Positions 7,291 to 40,515 of a DNA stretch of 40,547 bases are shown here, piece by piece; position 1 is the stretch's first letter; each line of letters begins with the position of its first letter. The notes beneath the pieces are model-generated. The model did not search any database and had not been told where the DNA came from. It saw nothing but the letters and a program-made list of their open reading frames with translations. Source of the DNA: Thermodesulfovibrionia bacterium (lineage in GTDB: Bacteria; Nitrospirota; Thermodesulfovibrionia; UBA6902; BMS3Bbin08); NCBI GenBank assembly GCA_036446195.1, contig JAZFSN010000051.1, positions 1 to 40,547 of the forward strand, in the 5' to 3' direction. The translations under genes and the position numbers were made by a program.

Positions 7291-7392
7291 AAACACAGAT
7301 GATCACAGATGTATCTGTCTACGACTCGTAGATCGGTCATCCCTGCCTGCCGGCAGGCAGGTGTATCTTTTTATCTGTGCTAATCTGTGTTT
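7291..7392. repeat. Composite palindromic element: CACAGAT-type arms plus central 20-bp GC palindrome
   Basis: Arms AAACACAGATGATCACAGAT (7291-7310) and ATCTGTGCTAATCTGTGTTT (7373-7392), 18/20 complementary; core CCTGCCTGCCGGCAGGCAGG at 7342-7361. Confidence 0.8.
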
Positions 7393-8428: not shown

Positions 8429-8432
8429 GATT

Positions 8433-8467
8433 CTGATTTCACAGATTTAAAAAATCGGTGTAATCAG
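8433..8467 (+). repeat. CTGATTTCACAGATT-family hairpin (single)
   Basis: CTGATTTCACAGATT-TAAAA-AATCGGTGTAATCAG, 13/15 complementary; starts 4 nt after the rplR stop. Confidence 0.8.
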
Positions 8468-8472
8468 GTTTA

Positions 8473-8988
8473 ATGAATATTAAATCAGGAGGTTATGTGG
8501 GTAGAATTGATGCGGAAAGACTCAGTCTTAAAGATAAAGTCATATATATAAACAGGGTCGCCAAGGTTGTTAAAGGCGGCAGGCGTTTTTCGTTTAGTGC
8601 GCTTGTTGTGGTGGGCGATGGTGATGGGCATATAGGTTTTGGTAAAGGAAAGGCTAAGGAAGTCCCTGAGGCTATAAGAAAGGCGATTGAACATGCAAAG
8701 AGAAACCTTATGAAAGTCCCTGTAAAAGACGGCTCAATCCCTCATCAGATAACGGGCAGGTACGGTGCTGGAAGGGTGGTTATGAAACCTGCTCCTGAAG
8801 GAGTAGGTCTTATTGCAGGAGGTCCCGTAAGGGCTATAATGGAGGTTGTAGGTATACATAACATTGTTACCAAGTCTCTTGGCACTCACAATCCATTTAA
8901 TACCGTAAGGGCTACATTTGATGGATTTACCAAACTTAAAGACTCAGAAAGCGTTATGAAAAGGACAGGAAAGGCTGAGGAAGAATAG
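8473..8988 (+). CDS. rpsE: 30S ribosomal protein S5
   Basis: [46 protein letters not shown]; start uncertain (in-frame GTG 8497 follows AGGAGG). Confidence 0.94.
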
Positions 8989-13884: not shown

Positions 13885-13888
13885 ATAA

Positions 13889-13986
13889 CTGATTTCACAG
13901 ATTAAAAGACTCTGATTACACAGATCTAAAAAAGTAGAGAGTGAAAAAAATCCGTGTAATCGTCTTAAAAAAATTGGTGTAATCAG
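13889..13986 (+). repeat. CTGATTTCACAGATT / GATTACACAGAT-family nested double hairpin
   Basis: Outer arms 13889-13903 and 13972-13986 (12/15); inner arms CTGATTACACAGATC 13912-13926 and ATCCGTGTAATCG 13950-13962; starts 4 nt after the rpsD stop. Confidence 0.8.
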
Positions 13987-14018
13987 TATAATGAACATTC
14001 ATTATACAGGGGGGCTTA

Positions 14019-15041
14019 ATGGATTTAAGGAAAAAAGGCTTTCATTTACCCGAGAAGGTTGAGTTTGATGTTGAAAGTCTTACTAATACGTATGGTAAGA
14101 TTTGTGCAGAGCCATTTGAAAGGGGGTTTGGCACTACTATCGGTAGTTCGTTAAGGAGGGTTTTACTCTCTTCAATTGAGGGAGCAGCTGTAACGTCTAT
14201 CAGGATTCCAGGGGTACTTCATGAATTTTCAACCATACCAAAGGTAAAAGAAGATGTAGTTGACATTGTGTTAAATGTAAAACAGCTGAGGTTTAAACTT
14301 CATTCTGATGCGCCAAAGGTTGCTTTAATCAATGTTAAAAGACCGGGAGAAGTTAAGGGAAAGGATATTACTGCAGGTGCTCAGGTAGAGCTTCTTACAC
14401 CGGAACAACATATTTTAACACTGGAAAAAGATATTAACTTTAAAATGGAATTGTCAGTTGCAAAAGGCAGGGGCTTTATCCCTGCTGAAAGTAATAAGAC
14501 AGAAGATCAGGCAGTGGATGTCATTGCGGTGGATTCACTTTTTACTCCCATAAAAAAGTTTAATTTCAGTGTTGAGAATGCGAGGGTCGGGCATTCAACA
14601 GATTATGACAGGCTTATTATGGAGATATGGACTGATGGAAGTATTACACCGCAACAGGCACTTACGCAGGCTACCGATGTTATTAGAGGACATATGCACC
14701 TGTTTTCTTTTGAAGAGGAATCGGTAATGGAAGAAGATATTGTTGAAACCCGGGAAGAAGAAAGTCTGACGGGCTTTAATGAAAATCTTCTCAGGAACGT
14801 TGACGAACTTGAGCTTTCAGTCCGCTCCTACAATTGTCTGAAAAATGCAAATATTCGTACAATTGCTGACCTTGTTCAGAAGACAGATCAGGAAATGCTC
14901 AGGACCAAGAACTTTGGAAGAAAATCTTTAAACGAGATAAGAGAGGTTCTCAGGTCAATGGGATTGCATTTCAACATGAGAATAGAGTCGGATTCATTAC
15001 ATGAAGAAGGCTCAGCAAAAAGTGAAGACAATGCGGCATAG
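14019..15041 (+). CDS. rpoA: DNA-directed RNA polymerase subunit alpha
   Basis: 340 aa, GFGTTIGSSLRRVLLSSIEGAAVTS, C-terminal domain ELSVRSYNCLKNANIRTIADLV. Confidence 0.97.
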   Translation: MDLRKKGFHLPEKVEFDVESLTNTYGKICAEPFERGFGTTIGSSLRRVLLSSIEGAAVTSIRIPGVLHEFSTIPKVKEDVVDIVLNVKQLRFKLHSDAPKVALINVKRPGEVKGKDITAGAQVELLTPEQHILTLEKDINFKMELSVAKGRGFIPAESNKTEDQAVDVIAVDSLFTPIKKFNFSVENARVGHSTDYDRLIMEIWTDGSITPQQALTQATDVIRGHMHLFSFEEESVMEEDIVETREEESLTGFNENLLRNVDELELSVRSYNCLKNANIRTIADLVQKTDQEMLRTKNFGRKSLNEIREVLRSMGLHFNMRIESDSLHEEGSAKSEDNAA

Positions 15042-15513
15042 AGTGGCTGGCAGAGGTCTCGGCAGAAATACAAACCAGAGAAAGGCCCTTTTGAGATGTC
15101 TGGTATTATCATTATTTAAACATCTAAAGATAGAAACTACACTTGCTAAGGCAAAGGAGGCAAAAAAGACAGCTGAACATATAATTAGCCTTGGCAAGAA
15201 AGGAGACTTACATTCAAGGAGATTGGCGCTCTCACGTCTTCCCAATAGAGATATAATTTCAAGACTCTTTAATGTTATAGCTCCAAAAATTACCAATAGA
15301 GATAGTGGTTATCTGCGCATTGTGAAAACCAGGGTCCGTCAGGGGGACTGCTCTTCTATGGCTATTCTTGAGTTTGTTGACTATGAAACACTGAGAGAAA
15401 AGAAGAAAGAGAAGAAAAAGACAAAGAAAGAAGGAAAAGAAAAGAAAGAAGGGAAAGAAAAGAAACAACGAAAAGAAAAGAAAGAAGGCAAAGAAACGAA
15501 AAAAGGAGGTTAA
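15031..15513 (+). CDS. rplQ: 50S ribosomal protein L17 with Lys/Glu-rich repeat tail
   Basis: Start at MRHRVAGRGLGRNTNQRKALL (ORF track 15001); conserved core ends MAILEFVD, followed by about 40 aa of KE repeats. Confidence 0.94.
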   Translation: MRHRVAGRGLGRNTNQRKALLRCLVLSLFKHLKIETTLAKAKEAKKTAEHIISLGKKGDLHSRRLALSRLPNRDIISRLFNVIAPKITNRDSGYLRIVKTRVRQGDCSSMAILEFVDYETLREKKKEKKKTKKEGKEKKEGKEKKQRKEKKEGKETKKGG

Positions 15514-20307: not shown

Positions 20308-20334
20308 ACTGACAACTGACCCCTGACAACTGGT
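20308..20334 (-). repeat. Dispersed repeat CAGTTGTCAGGGGTCAGTTGTCAGTG (inverted copy)
   Basis: The reverse complement matches 24018-24049 (CAGTTATCAGGGGTCAGTTGTCAGT...) with one mismatch over about 26 nt. Confidence 0.75.
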
Positions 20335-20337
20335 ATT

Positions 20338-21348
20338 TTACAGTCTGTTGCTTACTAATTTTATTTCTTCTAATTTTTTAAGGGCTGCACCTGAATCTAT
20401 GGCTTCAGATGCCTTTTCTGCCGCCTCTTTAAAACTTTTTGCCATGTTGCCTGTTATCAGTGCTGCAGCAGTATTCATTATAGTTATATCTCTCTTGGGG
20501 CTCTTTACGCCTTTAAGTATATCAATTGTTATCTTTGCGTTTTCCTCTGCTGTTCCACCCAGCAGGTCTTCTTTTCTGGCTCTTATAAAGCCCATGTCTT
20601 CAGGAGTTATATAATAAGTATCGGTTCTGCCGTCTTTCAATTCTGATATTTTTGTTTTTTCGGTATTAGTAATCTCGTCAAGTCCGTCTTCTCCATGAAC
20701 TATGAAAGCATGTACTATACCAAGGTTGCCAAGTACATGTGCAATAGTTTCTGTTAGACTGTCACTAAATACTCCCAGAACCTGCCTTTCAGCTCCAGCA
20801 GGGTTTGTGAGAGGGCCTAGTATATTAAAGACAGTTCTTATTCCCATTTCTTTTCTCGGGCCAATGGCATATTTCATTGCGGGATGAAATAAGGGGGCAA
20901 ACATAAAACCAAAACCCGTTGACTCAAGGCATTTTTCAACTTTTTTAGGTTCAAGGTCTATTTTTACGCCAAGCGCCTCGAGCACATCCGCGCTTCCAGA
21001 GCGGCTTGATACAGAACGGTTGCCGTGTTTGGCAACAGGCACGCCGCAGGCAGCCGCGATCAGGGCAGCGGAAGTGGAGATATTAAAAGTATGTGCCATA
21101 TCGCCGCCTGTACCGCACGTGTCAACGGTATATTTTGGAGCATTTATTTTCGTCGCCTTTTCCCTCATAACTTTTGCTGCGCCTGTGATTTCCTCGACAG
21201 TCTCACCCTTTATTCTGAGCGCCGTGAGAAAGGATGCAATTTGTGCATCAGTTGCCCGGCCTTCCATTATTTCCCTCATGGCATTTATTATTTCATCTTC
21301 CTGGAGATTCGTGCCTTCAATAACAAGTTTAATAATGTCTTTAATCAT
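20338..21348 (-). CDS. trpD: Anthranilate phosphoribosyltransferase
   Basis: 336 aa, DTCGTGGD, NISTSAALIAAACGVPVAKHGNRS motifs. Confidence 0.95.
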   Translation of the reverse strand: MIKDIIKLVIEGTNLQEDEIINAMREIMEGRATDAQIASFLTALRIKGETVEEITGAAKVMREKATKINAPKYTVDTCGTGGDMAHTFNISTSAALIAAACGVPVAKHGNRSVSSRSGSADVLEALGVKIDLEPKKVEKCLESTGFGFMFAPLFHPAMKYAIGPRKEMGIRTVFNILGPLTNPAGAERQVLGVFSDSLTETIAHVLGNLGIVHAFIVHGEDGLDEITNTEKTKISELKDGRTDTYYITPEDMGFIRARKEDLLGGTAEENAKITIDILKGVKSPKRDITIMNTAAALITGNMAKSFKEAAEKASEAIDSGAALKKLEEIKLVSNRL

Positions 21349-21350
21349 AG

Positions 21351-21932
21351 TTAATCCTCTTTCTTGATCCCCAGTTTCAAAAAATTCCTCAGTAAATCTT
21401 TCCCAACCTTGGTAAGTATTGACTCAGGATGGAATTGAACCCCTTCCATTAAAAAATCTTTATGCCTTATACCCATTATCTCATCTCTGTCTGTCCATGC
21501 AGTTATCTCAAAGCAGGCAGGCAGGGTGGCCCTTTTTATAATAAGCGAGTGATATCTTGTCGCCTCAAAGGGGTTTGGAAGCCCTTTAAAAATAGTTTTT
21601 CCGTCATGGTGAATTAAGGAGGTCTTTCCGTGCATAAGTCGCGGAGCATTTATTATATCCCCGCCGAAAGCTGCGCCAGCTGACTGATGTCCGAGACATA
21701 CGCCAAGAATTGGAATTTTCCCGGTAAAACATCTTATTACTTCTGTGGATATGCCGGCTTCTTTTGGCGTGCATGGCCCGGGAGAGATGACAATTCTCCC
21801 GGGATTGAGCTTTTCTATTTCAGGGATTGTAATCTTGTCGTTTCTGAAAACGCGAATATCCTCACCGAGCTCACCGAGATACTGAACCAGGTTATAAGTG
21901 AAAGAATCGTAATTGTCAATCATTAATAACAT
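21351..21932 (-). CDS. trpG: Anthranilate synthase component II (glutamine amidotransferase, TrpG/PabA type)
   Basis: 193 aa, [34 protein letters not shown] triad motifs. Confidence 0.93.
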
Positions 21933-21992
21933 AAAGTTAATTCCTAATTTTCAGTTTAAACTCTGAAAAATATATAATTGACACACCTGCCA

Positions 21993-22128
21993 AAGTACAA
22001 TAGGATTAGATTTGAACGGTTTTTTTCGTCCAGACATGTCGGGGCGAAAACCCTGCCTGCCGGCAGGCAGGCTCGGAGTCCCGATACTTCGGGATGGGAA
22101 TGAGTGAAAGTCTAATCCTATTGTACTT
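21993..22128. repeat. MITE-like element with perfect 18-bp terminal inverted repeats and central GC palindrome
   Basis: AAGTACAATAGGATTAGA (21993-22010) / TCTAATCCTATTGTACTT (22111-22128); core CCTGCCTGCCGGCAGGCAGG 22052-22071; inner hairpin TCCCGA-TACT-TCGGGA. Confidence 0.8.
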
Positions 22129-22150
22129 CATAACTATACTGTGTTTATTT

Positions 22151-23713
22151 TCAGGTTAAATCGTTCTCTGCCATTTCTATTGCTTTAAACATTCCTTTTG
22201 CCTTGTTGATGGTTTCCATGTATTCTTTCTCAGGGTCTGAATCAGCAACTATTCCTGCTCCTGCCTGTATATAGGCTGTTTGTTTTTTCAGACCCGTCTG
22301 ATCCGCCGAGGCGGAAAAAATAATGGTTCTAATGGTAATACACATATCCATATTACCAGAGAAATCAAAATAACCTACACATCCGGCATAAGGCCCTCTC
22401 TTGGTTGGCTCCAGTTCTTCAATAATCTCCATAGCCCGTATCTTTGGGGCGCCTGTCACCGTGCCTGCCGGGAATGACGCCCTGAGCAAATCAAATGCGT
22501 CCCTGCCATTTTCAAGTTTTCCAATAACATTAGATGCAAGGTGCATGACATGAGAATATCTTTCAACAGTCATCAACTCGGTAACTTCAACAGTGCCTGT
22601 GGCTGCTACCCTTCCCAGGTCATTTCTGCCCAGGTCAACGAGCATAATATGCTCTGCCATTTCCTTGGGATCTGCCTTCAGCTCTTTTTCGAGTTCCAGG
22701 TCTTTTTCAACGGTATCTCCTCTTTTTCTTGTTCCCGCAATTGGTCTCAGCTCTGTAATATCACCTTCGAGCCTGACCAGTATTTCAGGGGAAGATCCTA
22801 CAAGCGTGTTTTTACCGGTCTCAAGGTAGAACATGTAAGGCGATGGGTTTATGATACGAAGTGCCCGGTAGGCATTTATCGGATGAATATCTGTCTCTCT
22901 TTGAAAATTTTGAGATATTACCGTCTGAATTACATCTCCTGACTTTACATATTCTTTTATCTTCCTGACTGCCTTCAGGAAGTCGTTTTTAGAAAAATTA
23001 GACAGGAAATTATTCTCTAAACTGGGGACAAAAGGCTTTTTTGTCATAGTCGGCTTATGACGGGATGATGCAATTGAACTCTTGGGAAGTACAATTTTTG
23101 ATTTAAGCTTTTTGACTATGACGTCAATTTTTTCCAGAGCCTTATCATAAGCTGTTTTTGGATCAGCTTCTATGTGAGCATTTGAGATTACTTTAATCTT
23201 TTGGGTCAGGTTATCAAATACAAGTAATGTATCGGTAAGCATGAAAAATATATCAGGCAGATTTAATTTGGCGAGATGATTATCCGGCAATTTTTCAAAA
23301 AAGCGTACAGTATCATATCCGATATAACCGACAAAACCGCCAAAGAACCTAGGAAGTCCGGGCATTATAACAGGCTTATATTTTTTTATTTCTGCTGATA
23401 TAATTTCAAGTGGGTCTCGATATCGAGCGATACCTGCTTTGTCAAATCTGATTTTCTCTTTTTGTGTTCCCCGCTTAACTGTAAGGGTGTTACCGTTCCC
23501 TTCTATTGTCAGTGAGGGATTGCTTCCGATAAATGAATACCTTGCCCATTTTTCTCCTCCCTCAACGCTTTCAAAGAGGAACCCTGTTTTTCCCTTTAGT
23601 TTAATAAATGCTGAAAGAGGAGTCTCAAGGTCTGCAAGGATCTCTTTATAGACAGGGATAAGGTTGCCTTGTTTAGTTTTCTCTTTAAATTCTTGAAAAT
23701 CAGGGTAGAACAT
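22151..23713 (-). CDS. trpE: Anthranilate synthase component I
   Basis: LFESVEGGEKWARYSFIG, GAPKIRAMEIIEELE, GAGIVADSDPEKEY; start uncertain: MFYPDF (23713) preferred, MKK (23737) or GTG (23779) possible. Confidence 0.93.
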   Translation of the reverse strand: MFYPDFQEFKEKTKQGNLIPVYKEILADLETPLSAFIKLKGKTGFLFESVEGGEKWARYSFIGSNPSLTIEGNGNTLTVKRGTQKEKIRFDKAGIARYRDPLEIISAEIKKYKPVIMPGLPRFFGGFVGYIGYDTVRFFEKLPDNHLAKLNLPDIFFMLTDTLLVFDNLTQKIKVISNAHIEADPKTAYDKALEKIDVIVKKLKSKIVLPKSSIASSRHKPTMTKKPFVPSLENNFLSNFSKNDFLKAVRKIKEYVKSGDVIQTVISQNFQRETDIHPINAYRALRIINPSPYMFYLETGKNTLVGSSPEILVRLEGDITELRPIAGTRKRGDTVEKDLELEKELKADPKEMAEHIMLVDLGRNDLGRVAATGTVEVTELMTVERYSHVMHLASNVIGKLENGRDAFDLLRASFPAGTVTGAPKIRAMEIIEELEPTKRGPYAGCVGYFDFSGNMDMCITIRTIIFSASADQTGLKKQTAYIQAGAGIVADSDPEKEYMETINKAKGMFKAIEMAENDLT

Positions 23714-23933
23714 TTGACAAAACCCGCTTTTTTTCATTACTATTTTAAAGTATAGGCGTATCCTAATACTTGATTGCACCGATTAAAATAAGATTACACA
23801 GATAGTGCGTGAGCGAAGCGTTCGCCTATCTTGAATGTCTATTATAGACTATTGATAGCTTAAAGTTAAGTTTTAAAGAAGAAGTTTTTTCTTTGAGTCT
23901 TTGAATTTAGCTGATAACTGATAACTATTTAAT

Positions 23934-24009
23934 GCGGGTGTAGCTCAGCTGGTAGAGCACAACCTTGACAAGGTTGGGGTCGCGGGTTCGAATCCCGTCG
24001 CCCGCTCCA
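23934..24009 (+). tRNA. tRNA-Val (anticodon GAC)
   Basis: Hand-folded cloverleaf: acceptor GCGGGTG/CGCCCGC, D arm GCTC..GAGC, anticodon arm CAACC-TTGACAA-GGTTG, T arm GCGGG-TTCGAAT-CCCGT, encoded CCA. Confidence 0.93.
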
Positions 24010-24017
24010 TATAAAGC

Positions 24018-24049
24018 AGTTATCAGGGGTCAGTTGTCAGTTGGCAGTG
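24018..24049 (+). repeat. Dispersed repeat CAGTTaTCAGGGGTCAGTTGTCAGT (direct copy) just 3' of tRNA-Val
   Basis: See 20308-20334. Confidence 0.75.
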
Positions 24050-24101
24050 AAAAATTAAACTGATTACTGATAACTGGTTACTGTTTTTAAATTCCTCCTC
24101 A

Positions 24102-24132
24102 ATTCTGCTAAGCAGAATCTTTGTTGTTTTGC
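24102..24132 (+). terminator. Possible intrinsic terminator after tRNA-Val
   Basis: ATTCTGC-TAA-GCAGAAT 7-bp stem followed by the T-rich CTTTGTTGTTTTGC; stem is AT-rich, so weak. Confidence 0.35.
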
Positions 24133-24230
24133 TCGGCTTTTTCTCATCCTTTTTATTTAAACCCCAATTAAGCGATTCTTAATCTGTCATTTCGGTTCCC
24201 GTTCTCCGTAGCACTGCGAAGGATGAATGT

Positions 24231-24273
24231 CCGGTCGGAGCGACTCTTCGCGGAGACTCGCTTCGAGAATCTC
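24231..24273 (+). repeat. Dispersed repeat family B copy
   Basis: CCGGTCGGAGCGACTCTTCGCGGAGACTCGCTTCGAGAATCTC; related to 1085-1140 and, inverted, to 27497-27547. Confidence 0.7.
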
Positions 24274-24320
24274 TCTTCTATGCCACCCGTCACTGAATGG
24301 TTCACCTTTTAACAATAGTA

Positions 24321-24376
24321 TTGACAGACCTAAAACAGTATGGTATATAGATGTTTTACTAAGGCTTTTGTATAAT
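24321..24376 (+). promoter_or_regulatory. Tandem sigma70-like promoters upstream of the DUF5678-like/retropepsin pair
   Basis: TTGACA (24321-24326), 17 nt, TATATA (24344-24349); second perfect TATAAT at 24371-24376 preceded by TG; ATG at 24396. Confidence 0.5.
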
Positions 24377-24395
24377 AGAATTAAGTGATAATCCC

Positions 24396-24635
24396 ATGAC
24401 CAATCTGGAAAAAGAGTTCCAATATTACGTAGACCACCAAGAAGAACTCGTCCGCCAGCATAATGGAAAATTCATCGTTATCAAAGGGCAGGAGATAATA
24501 GGCGTGTATGATTCCGAAATGGAAGCTATTGAAAAAACCTCGGCAGAGCATGAACTCGGAACGTTCCTTATTCAGAAGTGCGAACCGGGAAGCGAAAGCT
24601 ACACGCAGACATATCATTCCAGGGTTGCCTTCTAA
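24396..24635 (+). CDS. Small conserved-looking protein, DUF5678-like (79 aa)
   Basis: Pattern HNGKFIVIKGQEIIGVYDSEMEAIEKT...GTFLIQKC resembles DUF5678-type small proteins (recognised from memory, unverified); own promoters; stop abuts next ATG. Confidence 0.7.
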   Translation: MTNLEKEFQYYVDHQEELVRQHNGKFIVIKGQEIIGVYDSEMEAIEKTSAEHELGTFLIQKCEPGSESYTQTYHSRVAF

Positions 24636-25217
24636 ATGCCCCCCCCTATAAATGTTCACAGCTTCACAACCGAACATAATGGTATTGCCAATGTATTAAA
24701 ATCATTGGTTAATATATCTCTGGGATTTGACCCCAAAGCAATATCAGTACGACCTTCGCCGAAAGAATACACCGCCATCTGGGATACAGGCGCAACCAAC
24801 TCTGTCATTACGAAAAAGGTAGTACAGGAATGCGGGCTGAAACCAATTAGCATGGTACAGGTTAATCATGCTGGCGGTACTACAGTGCAACCCGTTTATC
24901 TTGTCAATATTTATCTTCCTAACAAGGTCGTTTTCTATCATGTAAGAGCTACTGAAGGTGATATAAAAGGCAGTGATGTGCTTGTGGGGATGGATATTAT
25001 CAACAAAGGGGATTTTGTAGTAACAAACAAAGATGGGAAGACAGTGTTTTCATTCAGGTGTCCATCTATTGAGCGAATTGATTTTGTAAAGCAACGACCG
25101 TCCGGGTCTTCTTCCACCACACCATTTCCCCCCTCAGGTAAGAAAATCGGCAGGAATGACCCCTGCAAGTGCGGAAGCGGGAAGAAGTATAAAAAGTGCT
25201 GCGGCAGAGGGGGATAA
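24636..25217 (+). CDS. Retropepsin-like aspartic protease with C-terminal SEC-C zinc motif
   Basis: AIWDTGATNSVI (D-T-G-A catalytic loop, Asp50), VLVGMDIINKGDF, Ser/Pro linker, C-terminal GRNDPCKCGSGKKYKKCCG. Confidence 0.8.
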   Translation: MPPPINVHSFTTEHNGIANVLKSLVNISLGFDPKAISVRPSPKEYTAIWDTGATNSVITKKVVQECGLKPISMVQVNHAGGTTVQPVYLVNIYLPNKVVFYHVRATEGDIKGSDVLVGMDIINKGDFVVTNKDGKTVFSFRCPSIERIDFVKQRPSGSSSTTPFPPSGKKIGRNDPCKCGSGKKYKKCCGRGG

Positions 25218-25273
25218 ACTTCTTTTATCTAGAAAAAGTAGAAAAAGGTAGAAAAAGGGGTCAGACTTAATTA

Positions 25274-25302
25274 TTGACATTTAATAAAATTCTTGCTATT
25301 TT
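25274..25302 (+). promoter_or_regulatory. Sigma70-like promoter inside the left IR of the Y1/HUH unit (would give a near-leaderless mRNA)
   Basis: TTGACA (25274-25279), 17 nt, TATTTT (25297-25302); ATG at 25309, no SD. Confidence 0.4.
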
Positions 25303-25308
25303 TTATGC

Positions 25309-26262
25309 ATGGCACGAAAACCGAGGATAGAGTTTGAGGGAGCGTTTTATCACGTAATAGTCAGGGGCAATCAGAAACAAAAGATATTTAAAGATAATCA
25401 CGATTTTCTACAATACCAGCAAATAATAAACGCCTACAAGGCGAACTACCATTATTATCTTTATTCATATGTCCTTATGAGTAATCATATACACCTGCTT
25501 ATCGAAACAAGAGACACCCCTTTATCAAAAATAATGCAGGGAATCAACCAGCGTTATACAATGTATTTCAACAGAAAATATAAAACAGTTGGGCATCTTT
25601 TTCAGGGTAGATACAAAGCCATTCTTTGTGATAGGAACGCTTATCTATTAACGCTGATTAAATACATACACATGAATCCAGTAAGGGCAAAGATTGCAGA
25701 AAGTATCAGCAAATATCAATGGAGCAGTCATCATGAATATATAAAAAAGAGGAAGAAAAAAGGAATCATTGATGTAGACCAGGTATTGAGGATGTTTTCA
25801 GAAGACAAATCAGCAGCCAGAAAACTATACCGGACTTATATGGGTGATGAAATATCTGTAAAGAAGGAAGATATTTACAGGACTGTAGATCAACGGATAT
25901 TGGGAACAGAGCAGTTTGTAGAGGACGTAATGGAAAGACACGATGTGGAGTTGTCTCAAGAAAGGAAAGCAAGAGAATATTCAATGGCAGAGATAGCAAA
26001 GGCAGTAGAGAAGGTTATGGGCATAAAGTTAAAACAGATTCGTCAAAAAAGTAAATTGAGAGAAATATCCAGGGGGAGACAAATAATATCTATAGTTTCC
26101 GGAGAGTACGGGTATAAGGGCAAAGAGATATCTGAGTTTATACATAAAGATGCAGCAATGATAACGAGATATATGAAAGAAAAGGGAAAGTTAAAGGAAG
26201 AAGTAAAAAATGTAATTGAAATGATGAAAAAAGAACGTAATAATGTCAATAGTCAAGTCTGA
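25309..26262 (+). CDS. Y1 HUH transposase-like protein (IS200/RayT, COG1943-type) fused to DnaA-C-like HTH
   Basis: FYHVIVRGN, HUH motif SNHIHLLIE, catalytic Tyr in LFQGRYKAIL; C-terminal KSKLREISRGRQIISIVSGEYGYKGKEISEFIHKDAAMITRYM resembles DnaA domain IV. Confidence 0.85.
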   Translation: MARKPRIEFEGAFYHVIVRGNQKQKIFKDNHDFLQYQQIINAYKANYHYYLYSYVLMSNHIHLLIETRDTPLSKIMQGINQRYTMYFNRKYKTVGHLFQGRYKAILCDRNAYLLTLIKYIHMNPVRAKIAESISKYQWSSHHEYIKKRKKKGIIDVDQVLRMFSEDKSAARKLYRTYMGDEISVKKEDIYRTVDQRILGTEQFVEDVMERHDVELSQERKAREYSMAEIAKAVEKVMGIKLKQIRQKSKLREISRGRQIISIVSGEYGYKGKEISEFIHKDAAMITRYMKEKGKLKEEVKNVIEMMKKERNNVNSQV

Positions 26263-26279
26263 CCCCATACCACTGATTC

Positions 26280-26654
26280 CTAAACCATTATCTCTACCAG
26301 TATCTTTTCATAGTCAACAACTGGTCTGGTTTTTTTCCTGCCATTCTTTGTCTTTTTAATCTCAATCAAACCAAGTTCTGCAAGGTAATGGACATCGTCT
26401 GTAACATTCTTTGCATCCCTGTGTAAAATCTTTGCAAGCGCATAAATGGAATCAGGCTTATTTTTCTTAATTGTCTTCAATATCCTCAATCGTTCATCAG
26501 TTATGAACTTTCTCATTGTCTTTAAGGATTCAAAAGAGATAACTGATTGAGGCTTTACAGCCTTGCCTTTTGCCACTGCCTTCATTGCTTTCTTTGCTTC
26601 TGCTATAAACTCGTCTTCGCTCTGAATGTCTAATCTTACATTTTTAATCTTCAT
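26280..26654 (-). CDS. HTH DNA-binding protein, putative antitoxin (TumA/HVO_A0114-like)
   Basis: 124 aa; winged-helix-like KPDSIYALAKILHRDAKNVTDDVHYLAELGLIEI; 11-nt overlap with the upstream TumE-like ORF. Confidence 0.7.
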   Translation of the reverse strand: MKIKNVRLDIQSEDEFIAEAKKAMKAVAKGKAVKPQSVISFESLKTMRKFITDERLRILKTIKKNKPDSIYALAKILHRDAKNVTDDVHYLAELGLIEIKKTKNGRKKTRPVVDYEKILVEIMV

Positions 26655-26964
26655 GTCTAACTCTCCTTACGTCGTTTAAAAAATCCTCAAAGAGTTTGTC
26701 AATGCTTTTAAACTCATATGGATATACTTTGTCTTTATAATGCCTGTGGTCTCCTTTTCTTTCTGCATTGTCATAACCTATTATTCTTTTGCCTTCCCTT
26801 ATATAAACCAGTGAATACTTAAATCCATGCGGTTTATCATGTGTTTTGCTGACATGCCATGACCTAATTTCAACAATGTCTCCATTGGGATATACCCTCT
26901 TACGCATTATGAAAGGCTTTGCCTCCATATAGGTTATTATATGCCATGTATCAGCATAAAGCAA
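26644..26964 (-). CDS. TumE/DUF6516-family putative toxin
   Basis: IVEIRSWHV...PHGFKYSLVYIREGKRIIGYDNAERKGDHRHYKDKVYPYEF matches my recollection of the TumE family; start uncertain (TTG 26964 or ATG 26928). Confidence 0.65.
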   Translation of the reverse strand: MLYADTWHIITYMEAKPFIMRKRVYPNGDIVEIRSWHVSKTHDKPHGFKYSLVYIREGKRIIGYDNAERKGDHRHYKDKVYPYEFKSIDKLFEDFLNDVRRVRHED

Positions 26965-27232
26965 TAAAAAAGGTGCTTGAATAACCAGACCCCTTTTTCT
27001 CCCAGGTTCTACTAAAACACCTTAAAAAGTCCTGAAAAATGATAGAAATGGATTAGGTATGTAACAGGTTATAAGCCTTATAATTTAAATGTTTATACAG
27101 TTTGTTATAGAGTGGTATGTCTTTAAAATAATGGTTTATATCGTAAGTATATCAAAACAGGAAGGGAAGTAAAACTAAAGATGGATTCGTATAACCTTGC
27201 CTCAAACTGTATAGTTTTTGTATAGTAAAGAG

Positions 27233-27261
27233 TTGACAGTTAAAAGTTAAGAGTCTATAAA
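27233..27261 (+). promoter_or_regulatory. Sigma70-like promoter for tRNA-Cys
   Basis: TTGACA (27233-27238), 17 nt, TATAAA (27256-27261); tRNA begins at 27295. Confidence 0.45.
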
Positions 27262-27294
27262 TTCTCTTACTGTTCACAGATTACTGTAGTTATT

Positions 27295-27370
27295 GGCGGC
27301 GTACCCAAGTGGTTAAGGGGGAGGTCTGCAAAACCTTTATTCAGCGGTTCGAATCCGCTCGCCGCCTCCA
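27295..27370 (+). tRNA. tRNA-Cys (anticodon GCA)
   Basis: Acceptor GGCGGCG/CGCCGCC, anticodon arm GAGGT-CTGCAAA-ACCTT, T arm AGCGG-TTCGAAT-CCGCT, discriminator U then CCA. Confidence 0.92.
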
Positions 27371-27496
27371 AATGACAAATCTTGGGAAAGGGTTCAAGGG
27401 GTCAGGCCCCCCTGCTTTCTTGCGAAAGCAAGAAGGGGGGCAGGGATACAAGTGATAGAATTAATTTTTTTAAATTTTATCTTCACTGTAACCCTA

Positions 27497-27547
27497 GAAT
27501 CTTGAAGCGAGTCCCGAAGCGGGTCTCCGCAAAGGGTCGCTTCGACC
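27497..27547 (-). repeat. Dispersed repeat family B copy (inverted orientation)
   Basis: Reverse complement reads GGTCGAAGCGACCCTTTGCGGAGACCCGCTTCGGGACTCGCTTCAAGATTC, aligning block-wise with 24231-24273. Confidence 0.65.
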
Positions 27548-27574
27548 TTGTAACCTCTCTTTTTAATAACTGCA

Positions 27575-28147
27575 ATGAAGATAATCGCATTTTTGGGAAG
27601 TCCAAGAAGGGAAGGGAATACAGAACTTCTTTTAAGAGAAGTAATTAGAGGGGTCGAAGATTGTGGTTCAGACGTTAAGGTCTTTGATCTGAACTCTATG
27701 AATATTCAGCCCTGTCAGGACTGTGGAGAGTGTGATGAAACAGGTGAATGTATTATACATGATGAGATGGATGAGGTGTATGAAGCAATAAGAACTGCTG
27801 ATAGAATTATACTCGCATCACCAATATTCTTTTTTGCCCTGAGCGCTCAAACAAAGGCTATGATAGACAGATGCCAGAGTTTCTGGTGTGAGAAGTATGT
27901 TTTAAAGAAACCTGTTCCTGATGGCGAATTTGGAAGAAAAGGGCTGTTACTGCTTGTTGGCGGAATGAAAAAAGAAGTAGGGGTTCAATGCTCAGAATCA
28001 TGTTCAAAAGCTTTTTTCAGAACGGTAAACGTACCCGAACACCGTACATTGAGCTTTCTTGGCATTAATAAGAAAGGCGAAATTTTGCAACATCCAACTG
28101 CACTTAAAGAGGCATACGAAGAGGGCAAAAAACTGGTAGCTTTTTAA
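27575..28147 (+). CDS. Iron-sulfur flavoprotein (Isf-like, NADPH-dependent FMN reductase/flavodoxin fold)
   Basis: MKIIAFLGSPRREGNTELL; compact Cys cluster CQDCGECDETGEC (CX2CX2CX5C); ILASPIFFFALSAQTKAMIDR. Confidence 0.8.
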   Translation: MKIIAFLGSPRREGNTELLLREVIRGVEDCGSDVKVFDLNSMNIQPCQDCGECDETGECIIHDEMDEVYEAIRTADRIILASPIFFFALSAQTKAMIDRCQSFWCEKYVLKKPVPDGEFGRKGLLLLVGGMKKEVGVQCSESCSKAFFRTVNVPEHRTLSFLGINKKGEILQHPTALKEAYEEGKKLVAF

Positions 28148-28154
28148 AAAGCTA

Positions 28155-28243
28155 CTGATTTCACAGATTAAAAAAAAAGATTACACAGATGAAAATCCTC
28201 ATGAGCTTATAATCTGTGTAATCATGGAGGTATCTGTGTAATC
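28155..28243 (+). repeat. CTGATTTCACAGATT / GATTACACAGAT-family nested double hairpin
   Basis: CTGATTTCACAGATT 28155-28169; GATTACACAGAT 28179-28190 pairs perfectly with ATCTGTGTAATC 28212-28223; second ATCTGTGTAATC 28232-28243; starts 7 nt after the isf stop. Confidence 0.85.
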
Positions 28244-28259
28244 AAACGTAGTTAACTTA

Positions 28260-28288
28260 TTGACGGCTATACCTTATTTTGATATACT
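28260..28288 (+). promoter_or_regulatory. Sigma70-like promoter for the che operon
   Basis: TTGACG (28260-28265), 17 nt, TATACT (28283-28288); about 100-nt leader to cheY ATG with GAAAGGA SD. Confidence 0.45.
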
Positions 28289-28395
28289 TATTTATGTGGA
28301 GATAGACCAAAAGAAAAAATTTAATTCCAAGTTAAATATATTATTCCTATCCCTTACTTTACAATAAATCCAAATATAAGAAGAAAGGATTTTTT

Positions 28396-28764
28396 ATGAA
28401 GTCTATTCTTATTGTTGATGATTCAGAAACTACCAGATCAATTATTAAGTCATCGATTGAGGAGATAGACGACATAGATATATTTGAGGCTCCCACAGGT
28501 TTTGAGGCCCTAAGAATGTTACCCACTCAATCTTTTGATCTGGTTTTTATAGATATCAATATGCCTGATATAAATGGTTTAGAACTTATTAATTTCATTA
28601 AAAATAATGATAAATATAAAAAAATCCCTATTATAATTGTGTCAACTGAAAGCAGTGAGGAAGATAGGAAAAAAGGGCTGGCCCTGGGCGCGCTTGCTTA
28701 TTTGACAAAACCTTTTAAAGGAGAGGAGCTTATAGATACCGTTAAAAAGGCACTGAGTTTATGA
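28396..28764 (+). CDS. cheY: Chemotaxis-type response regulator CheY (receiver only)
   Basis: 122 aa; IVDDS acidic pocket, phospho-acceptor in FIDINMPD, VST, TKPF. Confidence 0.9.
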   Translation: MKSILIVDDSETTRSIIKSSIEEIDDIDIFEAPTGFEALRMLPTQSFDLVFIDINMPDINGLELINFIKNNDKYKKIPIIIVSTESSEEDRKKGLALGALAYLTKPFKGEELIDTVKKALSL

Positions 28765-40447: not shown

Positions 40448-40515
40448 GCCGGCGTGGTGGAATGGCAGACCTGCCTGCCGGCAGGCAGGCGCAAGGAACT
40501 CAAATCTGTTACAAT
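40448..40515 (+). pseudogene. tRNA-Leu-like 5' fragment interrupted by the 20-bp GC palindrome
   Basis: GCCGGCGTGGTGGAATGGCAGAC resembles the class II tRNA acceptor/D arm; after the palindrome (40470-40489), GCGCAAGGAACTCAAATC resembles a Leu(CAA) anticodon region; no T arm follows. Confidence 0.4.

Follow-up and report, generated by a model that had tools for sequence, protein, structure and literature searches.

RAYT-like genes lying between terminal inverted repeats (TIRs) were named TIRYTs, and the units that they form with these repeats TIRtrons, by Di Nocera, De Gregorio and Rocco (2013, BMC Genomics 14:522; PMC3733652). Many of the TIRs carry the motif GGGGWSAS, they can overlap the ends of the gene, and some of them form families of single, dimeric or grouped repeats (PMC3733652). 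In the survey of Quentin, Siguier, Chandler and Fichant (2018, BMC Genomics 19:475; PMC6006769), 20 of 26 TIRYTs fell into TnpA_REP subclass 2.1, which was present in 14.9% of the strains surveyed. Members of subgroup 2.1.2 have a C-terminus resembling Bac_DnaA_C, HTH_23 or HTH_28, sequences like the repetitive extragenic palindromes (REPs) were not found nearby, and GGGGWSAS was described as unlike a DnaA box (PMC6006769). A full-text literature search turned up no biochemical work on any TIRYT. Here we describe a unit of this kind at positions 25257-26266 (1010 bp) of contig JAZFSN010000051.1, from a Thermodesulfovibrionia metagenome-assembled genome (MAG); the contig was analysed as a single stretch of 40.5 kb, referred to below as the window.

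On the basis of its domain architecture and TIR motif, the unit is classified as a TIRtron and its gene as a TIRYT of TnpA_REP subclass 2.1.2. It shares with described members a RAYT-like Y1/HUH protein that is longer than RAYTs and has a Bac_DnaA_C/HTH-like C-terminus. TIRs, not REP hairpins, are found at the gene flanks, with GGGGWSAS at the outer end (here GGGGTCAG), and one TIR runs over the 3' end of the gene; elsewhere, in some genomes, the TIRs occur as single, dimeric and grouped copies. There is no essential difference, and what is new is the host lineage, a Nitrospirota/Thermodesulfovibrionia-like MAG. The locus is a new example of a described class, not a new kind of system. The original prediction, made from this DNA alone, had implied that TIRs on a Y1 gene were a novelty, which does not hold, since TIRYTs and TIRtrons were named in 2013 (PMC3733652) and the DnaA_C-like tail was reported in 2018 (PMC6006769). 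As far as we found, the unit boundaries, the absence of target-site duplications, the leaderless geometry and the ~97-bp copies presented below are in neither of these papers. The best explanation of the locus, which we hold with moderate confidence, is an autonomous TIRtron at 25257-26266 that consists of one gene between two 25-nt TIRs and is moved by its own Y1 enzyme.

Two other groups of Y1 systems are close enough to merit comparison. RAYT (TnpA_REP) enzymes, with their REP, BIME and REPIN repeats, provide the best structural match (4er8), and they too are encoded by single-copy genes bracketed by inverted cognate repeats; the gene-less hairpin doublets of the present family are analogous to REPINs. 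However, the window repeat is neither a palindrome nor a hairpin and has no GTAG tag, the protein contains an extra helix-turn-helix (HTH) domain and scores under the REP_Tyr_transpos cut-off, and the whole TIRtron appears mobile or transferable. REPtrons have GTAG-tagged REP hairpins, abundant in the genome, at the gene flanks; the window unit has none there. The TnpA proteins of the IS200/IS605 family (IS608, ISDra2) have the same HUH/Y1 fold and catalytic residues, their elements likewise generate no target-site duplication, and single-strand chemistry is presumed to be common to both. Their ends, in contrast, are asymmetric subterminal hairpins without TIRs, while the window unit has TIRs and no significant end hairpin; in addition, their transposases lack the HTH tail and the elements are usually multi-copy.

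Terminal repeats, protein and promoter

The features of the unit are as follows.

25257..25281, + strand: left TIR, GGGGTCAGACTTAATTATTGACATT; its tip GGGGTCAG fits GGGGWSAS
26242..26266, - strand: right TIR, reverse complement GGGGTCAGACTTGACTATTGACATT; encodes the C-terminal NVNSQV and the TGA stop
25230..25258: three tandem copies of TAGAAAAAG(G), abutting the left TIR and overlapping it by 2 nt; flank purine-rich
25274..25302, + strand: sigma-70-type promoter, from a consensus scan
25309..26262, + strand: TIRYT gene, 317 aa, RAYT-like Y1/HUH transposase with a C-terminal HTH domain
25345..25674, + strand: Y1/HUH catalytic domain, residues 13-122 (Pfam Y1_Tnp, E = 3.2e-16)
25486-25494, + strand: HUH motif, H60-I-H62, within SNHIHLL
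25612-25614, + strand: catalytic tyrosine Y102, within LFQGRYKA
25981..26220, + strand: DnaA-domain-IV-like HTH domain, residues ~225-304

An inverted-repeat search of the window yielded two 25-nt arms that are complementary at 23 of 25 positions (92%), with GGGGTCAG at both outer tips and the TGA stop (26260-26262) inside the right arm. The original prediction had described 25-bp inverted repeats with the right copy over the stop codon; both points are correct, and the repeats are conserved around homologues. With up to 3 mismatches allowed, the 25-mer occurs twice in the window and in none of 100 dinucleotide-preserving shuffles, the two arms being the sole full TIR copies in the 40.5 kb. 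Single arms form no local hairpin above the level of shuffled sequence (z between -0.6 and +0.2 at both ends), the 4-bp GTCA/TGAC stem is not kept in the subfamily with an ATTGAG inner motif, and neither arm has a GTAG tag. Short tandem duplications of the TIR tip and the adjacent flank, such as the one at 25230-25258, also occur at other loci: L081 (181-226), L007 (3931-4014), L014 (3925-3976), L122 (3710-3900), L177 and L100. The duplicated units range from 9-10 nt up to 137 nt.

The region 25250-26266 contains a single open reading frame (ORF), and the peptide motifs KSKLREISRGRQII and EISEFIHKDAAMITRYM are both present in its 317-aa product. As had been predicted, this protein belongs with the Y1/HUH enzymes of the RayT/IS200 superfamily. 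In addition to the Y1_Tnp match, the top Foldseek match of its AlphaFold2 model (mean predicted local distance difference test score, pLDDT, 74; predicted TM score, pTM, 0.60) is the E. coli TnpA_REP bound to a REP hairpin (4er8_A, E = 3e-6), followed by the IS608 and ISDra2 TnpA proteins (E ~2e-4). The catalytic residues H60, H62 and Y102 do not vary across 45 aligned homologues (59-77% identity); the catalytic assignment of the original prediction stands among homologues as well. The curated NCBIfam models both score below their cut-offs (REP_Tyr_transpos, 71.4 bits against 80; transpos_IS200, 19.4 bits against 55), so that by these thresholds the protein counts neither as a RayT equivalog nor as an IS200 transposase.

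Two hidden Markov model matches had been anticipated. That to Y1_Tnp was confirmed, while Bac_DnaA_C reached 23.2 bits, below its gathering score of 31.5. As a result, the DnaA-type domain was put through extra tests. Several homologues carry a precomputed PF08299 match. A family profile built from the 45-homologue alignment has the DNA-binding domain IV of E. coli DnaA (1j1v_A) as its best PDB sequence match (E = 0.007, positions 225-304). In the AlphaFold2 model, the C-terminal domain is predicted with a pLDDT of 84-93, while the linker (residues 124-154) is of low confidence, and Foldseek matched the DnaA DNA-binding domains 3pvp_A (M. tuberculosis; E = 4.5e-4, target-normalised TM score, TMt, 0.70) and 1j1v_A (TMt 0.71). 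Thus, the C-terminal domain is modelled with the helix-turn-helix fold of DnaA domain IV, in agreement with the domain call made at the outset, and D281 is the equivalent of D433 in DnaA. The window protein differs from DnaA in lacking an AAA+ domain and in the residues that read the DNA. Among the base-reading residues D433-H434-T435-T436, the aspartate alone is retained in the profile alignment (D281, invariant), H434, T435 and T436 being replaced; the family consensus in this segment is K-D-P-A-V-V. DnaA-box specificity of the HTH domain is therefore not to be assumed.

The inner part of the TIR was considered as a possible DnaA box. Its 9-mer TTATTGACA agrees with the DnaA box TT[AT]TNCACA at 7 of 8 specified positions, the mismatch being at a C of the CACA core. 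This candidate was rejected, with G found systematically where DnaA boxes have C and with the H-T-T residues lost; on the same two grounds we argue for a specificity other than the DnaA box.

The TIRYT family is large: 7,340 of 8,000 candidate proteins scored had E <= 0.001. The nearest relatives are encoded in Nitrospirota/Thermodesulfovibrionia MAGs, and an NVNxQV/A C-terminus is common to many homologues.

The left TIR also contributes to the promoter. The -35 box TTGACA (25274-25279) lies inside it and is followed by a 17-nt spacer, with a TG before the -10 box TATTTT (25297-25302); the ATG begins 6 nt past the -10 box, and the window gene has no Shine-Dalgarno sequence. Across 33 left ends, a -35 TTGAC(A) and -10 (TAnnnT) pair is present in 30; among these 30, 25 have exactly 6 nt between the -10 box and the ATG, and 24 have a 17-nt spacer. 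The ATG lies 52 nt from the TIR tip in 24/33 left ends, and a Shine-Dalgarno-like sequence was found in 0/33. This comparison strongly backs the TTGACA-17-TATTTT promoter and the near-leaderless mRNA that had been proposed for the window gene. Since the 6-nt geometry is conserved and no Shine-Dalgarno sequence is present, the mRNA is predicted to be leaderless, with the transcription start deduced from the position of the promoter. The -35 box lies inside the TIR for the TIR type of the window, and members of the ATTGAG subfamily have a separate TTGACA after the TIR; the inner TIR motif thus does not serve as a -35 box alone.

Boundaries and distribution of the unit

A scan of one genome per species gave 16 full-length relatives, and for each locus (L numbers) the 5' flank was compared with the 3' flank by script to find the best-matching inverted repeat. 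A GGGGTCAGACTT...ATTGA pair flanks the gene in L003-L015, which are from Nitrospirota and 'Deltaproteobacteria' MAGs (47-65% protein identity). The TIR pair is present in 13/14 distinct full-length genome loci when L015 and L016 are counted once; the right arm is degenerate in L001, and L002 is without a left arm. The pair also brackets the gene in ~11 metagenome loci. A related tip, GGG(G)TCAGGCC, is found at 36-38% protein identity in Sporomusa termitida (pSPTER, TTTGGGGTCAGGCC...) and in Legionella adelaidensis (plasmid 24, GGGTCAGGCCTTGCC within a 26-nt repeat, 92% complementary); the proteins are WP_170233413.1 and WP_131739603.1, respectively. More distant branches have other flanking repeats, e.g. 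GGGGACGGTC..., with true hairpins in Patescibacteria. L015 and L016 were considered as two copies within one MAG, and this was rejected, as they are one region assembled twice (99.6% identical over 5.5 kb); for that reason they are uninformative on element boundaries.

The consensus of 216 non-identical TIR copies, obtained with GGGTCAG as the fixed search seed of the matrix, is t(-1) GGGGTCAGACTT RAWT ATTGA S W TT (~26 nt). Conservation is highest at the outer tip GGGGTCAGAC, not at the promoter-proximal part, the first G of the tip is G in 195/216 copies, and the outer flank is purine-rich. At the family-variable positions 13-16, the two arms of an element are identical in 80-96% of elements, compared to 32-65% between elements. 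This shows, at the level of the aligned repeats, that a common constraint acts on both arms.

The boundaries of the unit can be read from related copies in other contexts. When window positions 23500-28500 were compared by blastn with L001/L083, similarity extended from 25257 to 26261 and nowhere else, starting at the first G of the left TIR and stopping inside the right TIR; the flanks are unrelated. The copy concerned has 84% nucleotide identity to the window unit and belongs to a different organism, in which lysyl-phosphatidylglycerol-synthase-like genes lie upstream. L081, a strain variant with 99% identity, has the element in common with the window, as well as the toxin-antitoxin pair downstream, and departs from the window just beyond the left TIR, with unrelated DNA upstream of ~25250; it has a 27-nt tandem duplication of the TIR tip. 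None of the neighbour proteins of the window is encoded near any other TIRtron locus. Full units measure 999-1017 bp, most commonly 1007 bp, with the TIRYT as the sole ORF between the repeats in every one, and no direct flank repeat longer than 2 nt was found in 39 TIR pairs. These alignments show a discrete unit that occurs in unrelated contexts, with its boundaries at the outer G of each TIR and with no target-site duplication.

L083 was also considered as a second context of the 84% copy and was rejected, having the same context as L001. The end of its contig (5750-5868) is Illumina adapter sequence, AGATCGGAAGAGCACACGTCTGAACTCCAGTCAC. Since the contig runs into the adapter, the 285-aa protein P0004 is an artefact, a truncated full-length TIRYT.

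Copies of the TIR are also found without the gene. A metagenome scan for GGGGTCAGACTTNNNNATTGA gave at least 120 loci; among the matches listed, to which the following counts refer, a TIRYT lies beside the TIR in ~30 of 120, and ~90 are without the gene. The gene-less copies are of three kinds: perfect head-to-head doublets (L085, 57 bp; L095, L133 and L199), copies of ~97 bp (~90-100 bp) in which right-end sequence of the full unit is retained (L120, L147, L157, L168, L189 and L161/L186), and solo TIRs. The MITE-like (miniature inverted-repeat transposable element) copies of ~97 bp look like internal deletions of the full unit. Gene-less copies are extragenic, with 19% lying within long ORFs against a baseline of 73% (p = 8e-32). 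As single-stranded DNA, the doublet has a predicted folding energy of -30.2 kcal/mol (z = -12.6), and the ~97-bp copy one of -18.2 kcal/mol (z = -5.9).

One gene-less class has a conserved CCTAACAAATCACTCCAGCGGATGGC...CCGCTG hairpin ~35 nt after the TIR (L091, 5319-8956; also L087, L125, L129, L140, L145, L166, L170 and L171). In L091, a 184-aa ORF follows the TIR and hairpin, and one copy of a 383-aa mutY-like ORF stands on each side of the whole insert. No second TIR or TIRYT was found in this class.

Other repeats and genes of the window

The window contains several further repeats and accessory genes.

20316-20323 (-), 24026-24033 (+) and 27398-27405 (+): non-TIR copies of GGGGTCAG, all extragenic
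20308-20332 and 24017-24041: 25-nt inverted repeat ACTGACAACTGACCCCTGACAACTG, 24/25 complementary
25237-25262 and 26988-27013: left flank and TIR tip, AGTAGAAAAAGGTAGAAAAAGGGGTC, with an inverted second copy, 22/26
24396-24635: DUF5678-like ORF of the accessory islet
24636-25217: retropepsin-like aspartyl protease with a SEC-C motif, accessory islet
26280-26964, - strand: TumE toxin/HVO_A0114 winged-helix pair, accessory islet
7341-7361, 22051-22071 and 40469-40489: perfect GC-rich palindrome CCTGCCTGCCGGCAGGCAGG, three sites
8429-8473, 13885-13992, 23770-23803 and 28151-28245: CTGATT(T/A)CACAGAT repeat family, in intergenic spacers, often as inverted pairs
15394-15497: purine-rich 18-nt tandem repeat (AAGAAAAGAAAGAAGGNA)n, at the 3' end of the ORF 15001-15513

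The 8-mer GGGGTCAG of the TIR tip occurs 5 times in the window, compared to 0.76 expected, and 0/100 shuffles reach 5. Two of the non-TIR copies follow tRNAs, 17 nt past tRNA-Val and 28 nt past tRNA-Cys. Clusters of short GGGGTCA(G) solos are also seen close to TIRs in metagenome loci. Both these and the GGGGTCAG solos may be remnants of TIRYT action or minimal sites for it. The ACTGACAACTGACCCCTGACAACTG repeat, in which the GGGGTCAG motif is embedded in CTGAYAACTGA-type repeats, brackets tRNA-Val and three minus-strand ORFs at 20338-23779, the largest of 542 aa.

The TIRtron is part of a small accessory islet (24010-27294) between tRNA-Val (23934-24009) and tRNA-Cys (27295-27370). The sequence AGTAGAAAAAGGTAGAAAAAGGGGTC recurs beyond the TumE/HVO_A0114 pair, so that a larger bracket encloses the TIRtron together with the toxin-antitoxin module. 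The (AAGAAAAGAAAGAAGGNA)n repeat presumably encodes a Lys/Glu-rich low-complexity tail. The CCTGCCTGCCGGCAGGCAGG palindrome was found 0 times in all other loci fetched (~1 Mb) and appears unrelated to the TIRYT. The hairpin motif GATTWCACAGAT has 8 sites in the window, and the CTGATT(T/A)CACAGAT family was not associated with the TIRYT family at other loci.

Proposed mechanism, alternatives and significance

TnpA_REP and IS608 TnpA cleave and rejoin single-stranded DNA at their sites by HUH/Y1 chemistry. By analogy, the N-terminal HUH/Y1 domain of the TIRYT would nick and rejoin single-stranded DNA at the GGGGTCAG tips, with a 5'-phosphotyrosine link expected at Y102 as in those two enzymes. 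The DnaA-IV-like HTH domain could bind the inner ATTGAC half of the TIR and so place the enzyme at both ends; such binding would also repress the TIRYT's own promoter, whose -35 box is the same site. The substrate is probably a stem formed by two inverted TIR copies paired on single-stranded DNA, i.e. the lagging-strand template. Doublets are predicted to adopt this stem readily (-30 kcal/mol), and it could also arise between the two ends of the full unit. The enzyme would move the full unit and TIR pairs lacking the gene alike, in neither case with a duplication.

Several points weigh against the autonomous TIRtron and this mechanism. Tip cleavage, HTH binding, autoregulation and the single-stranded stem intermediate are all steps that we infer, and this applies to every TIRYT. 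Recognition of both ends as duplex DNA by a single protein would predict the covariation of the arms just as well, and the mismatches between arms lack the excess of transitions that pairing would give, transitions being about as frequent as transversions. In the alignments, the base-contacting residues H434, T435 and T436 of DnaA are not conserved, the aspartate excepted. The search for an empty site gave no insertion-free allele: exact look-ups of two neighbour proteins matched just one contig, which has the window's own arrangement. Finally, the 40.5-kb window has one gene copy and no extra full TIR, and the relatives were found once per MAG, which is the pattern of domesticated RAYTs rather than that of active insertion sequences.

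The main rival takes the gene to be a domesticated, immobile RAYT-like gene whose only effect is in trans: it would amplify or preserve TIR copies that lack the gene (solos and doublets), in the manner of Group 2/3 RAYTs and their REPINs, and the TIRs beside it would simply be the closest members of this repeat family. We consider this possible but doubtful. It would account for the single copy in the window and the occurrence once per MAG among close relatives, and RAYTs are known to be single-copy and vertically inherited (PMC5581495), which counts in its favour. The predominance of gene-less, extragenic TIR copies in metagenomes, together with the likeness of the hairpin doublets to REPINs, points the same way, as does rarity on mobile replicons: relatives were found in 28 of 72,556 plasmid records, all with <40% identity, and the phage collection gave rare, distant relatives only. 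However, a domesticated gene fits poorly with the changes of context at 84% nucleotide identity, where homology stops at the TIR tips and no synteny remains. The fixed length of ~1007 bp, with promoter and stop codon located in the TIRs, is how an autonomous element is built, the ~97-bp copies resemble internal deletions, and there are no extra TIR copies in the window. The two explanations are not mutually exclusive.

The remaining alternatives differ in the role that they give to the repeats. If the repeats were operators only, they would be HTH sites for autoregulation or DNA looping without breakage, and the Y1 domain would either work at other sites or be a vestige. The -35 box in the left repeat, the presence of an HTH domain of a type that binds double-stranded DNA, and the lack of a Y1-type hairpin in single TIRs are all compatible with this, but the HUH and tyrosine residues are invariant, homology between genomes breaks exactly at the repeat tips, the most conserved part is the outer tip and not the promoter-proximal one, and the repeats spread without the gene; we regard it as improbable. 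The original prediction considered plausible a REPtron-style nuclease that services the other repeats of the window, namely the CACAGAT hairpins and the CCTGCCTGCCGGCAGGCAGG palindrome, and expected the gene family to co-vary with one of them. The enzyme is indeed RAYT-like, and both repeats occur several times in the window. Nevertheless, ~1 Mb of loci with the gene family or the TIR contained no CCTGCCTGCCGGCAGGCAGG and a single GATTWCACAGAT, these palindromes are not at the gene flanks while the TIR consistently is, and the REP_Tyr_transpos score is below its cut-off; the cognate repeat of the family is its own TIR. The servicing role is thus largely refuted and its probability very small. 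Least probable of all, in our view barely worth entertaining, is that the repeats are the ends of a DDE-type insertion sequence or MITE family with the Y1 gene as a passenger. TIRs and short MITE-like copies are typical of DDE elements, yet the 39 TIR pairs lack target-site duplications, no ORF other than the TIRYT accompanies it in any full unit, and the gene has its promoter and its stop codon within the repeats.

The autonomous TIRtron can be extended to a more specific proposal, which we put forward tentatively and think rather unlikely. As a 'gene-in-the-loop REPIN', the TIRtron would pair its 25-nt arms on the lagging-strand template, with GGGGTCAG/CTGACCCC as cleavage sites at the base of the stem, and the DnaA-IV-like domain would read TTATTGACA, tying both excision/reinsertion and autorepression of the leaderless transcript to replication. 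If this were true, the doublets and the short GGGGTCAG solos by tRNA genes would be its products and footprints, and it would represent a third mode of end recognition for Y1 enzymes, besides the subterminal hairpins of IS608 and REP hairpins.

TIRYTs are the second-largest branch of TnpA_REP-like Y1 enzymes, and the question at stake is whether they are transposons or domesticated genes. The window locus and its relatives offer a minimal substrate of ~1007 bp with defined tips and no target-site duplication, as well as natural hairpin and ~97-bp derivatives, and the family has cultured carriers in Sporomusa termitida DSM 4440 and Legionella adelaidensis NCTC12735. With a delimited substrate and cultured carriers in existence, the question is experimentally approachable. 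Annotations should call such genes TIRYT/TIRtron, in place of RayT or IS200 transposase, and should treat extragenic repeats of the form GGGGTCAGACTT...ATTGA as their satellites.

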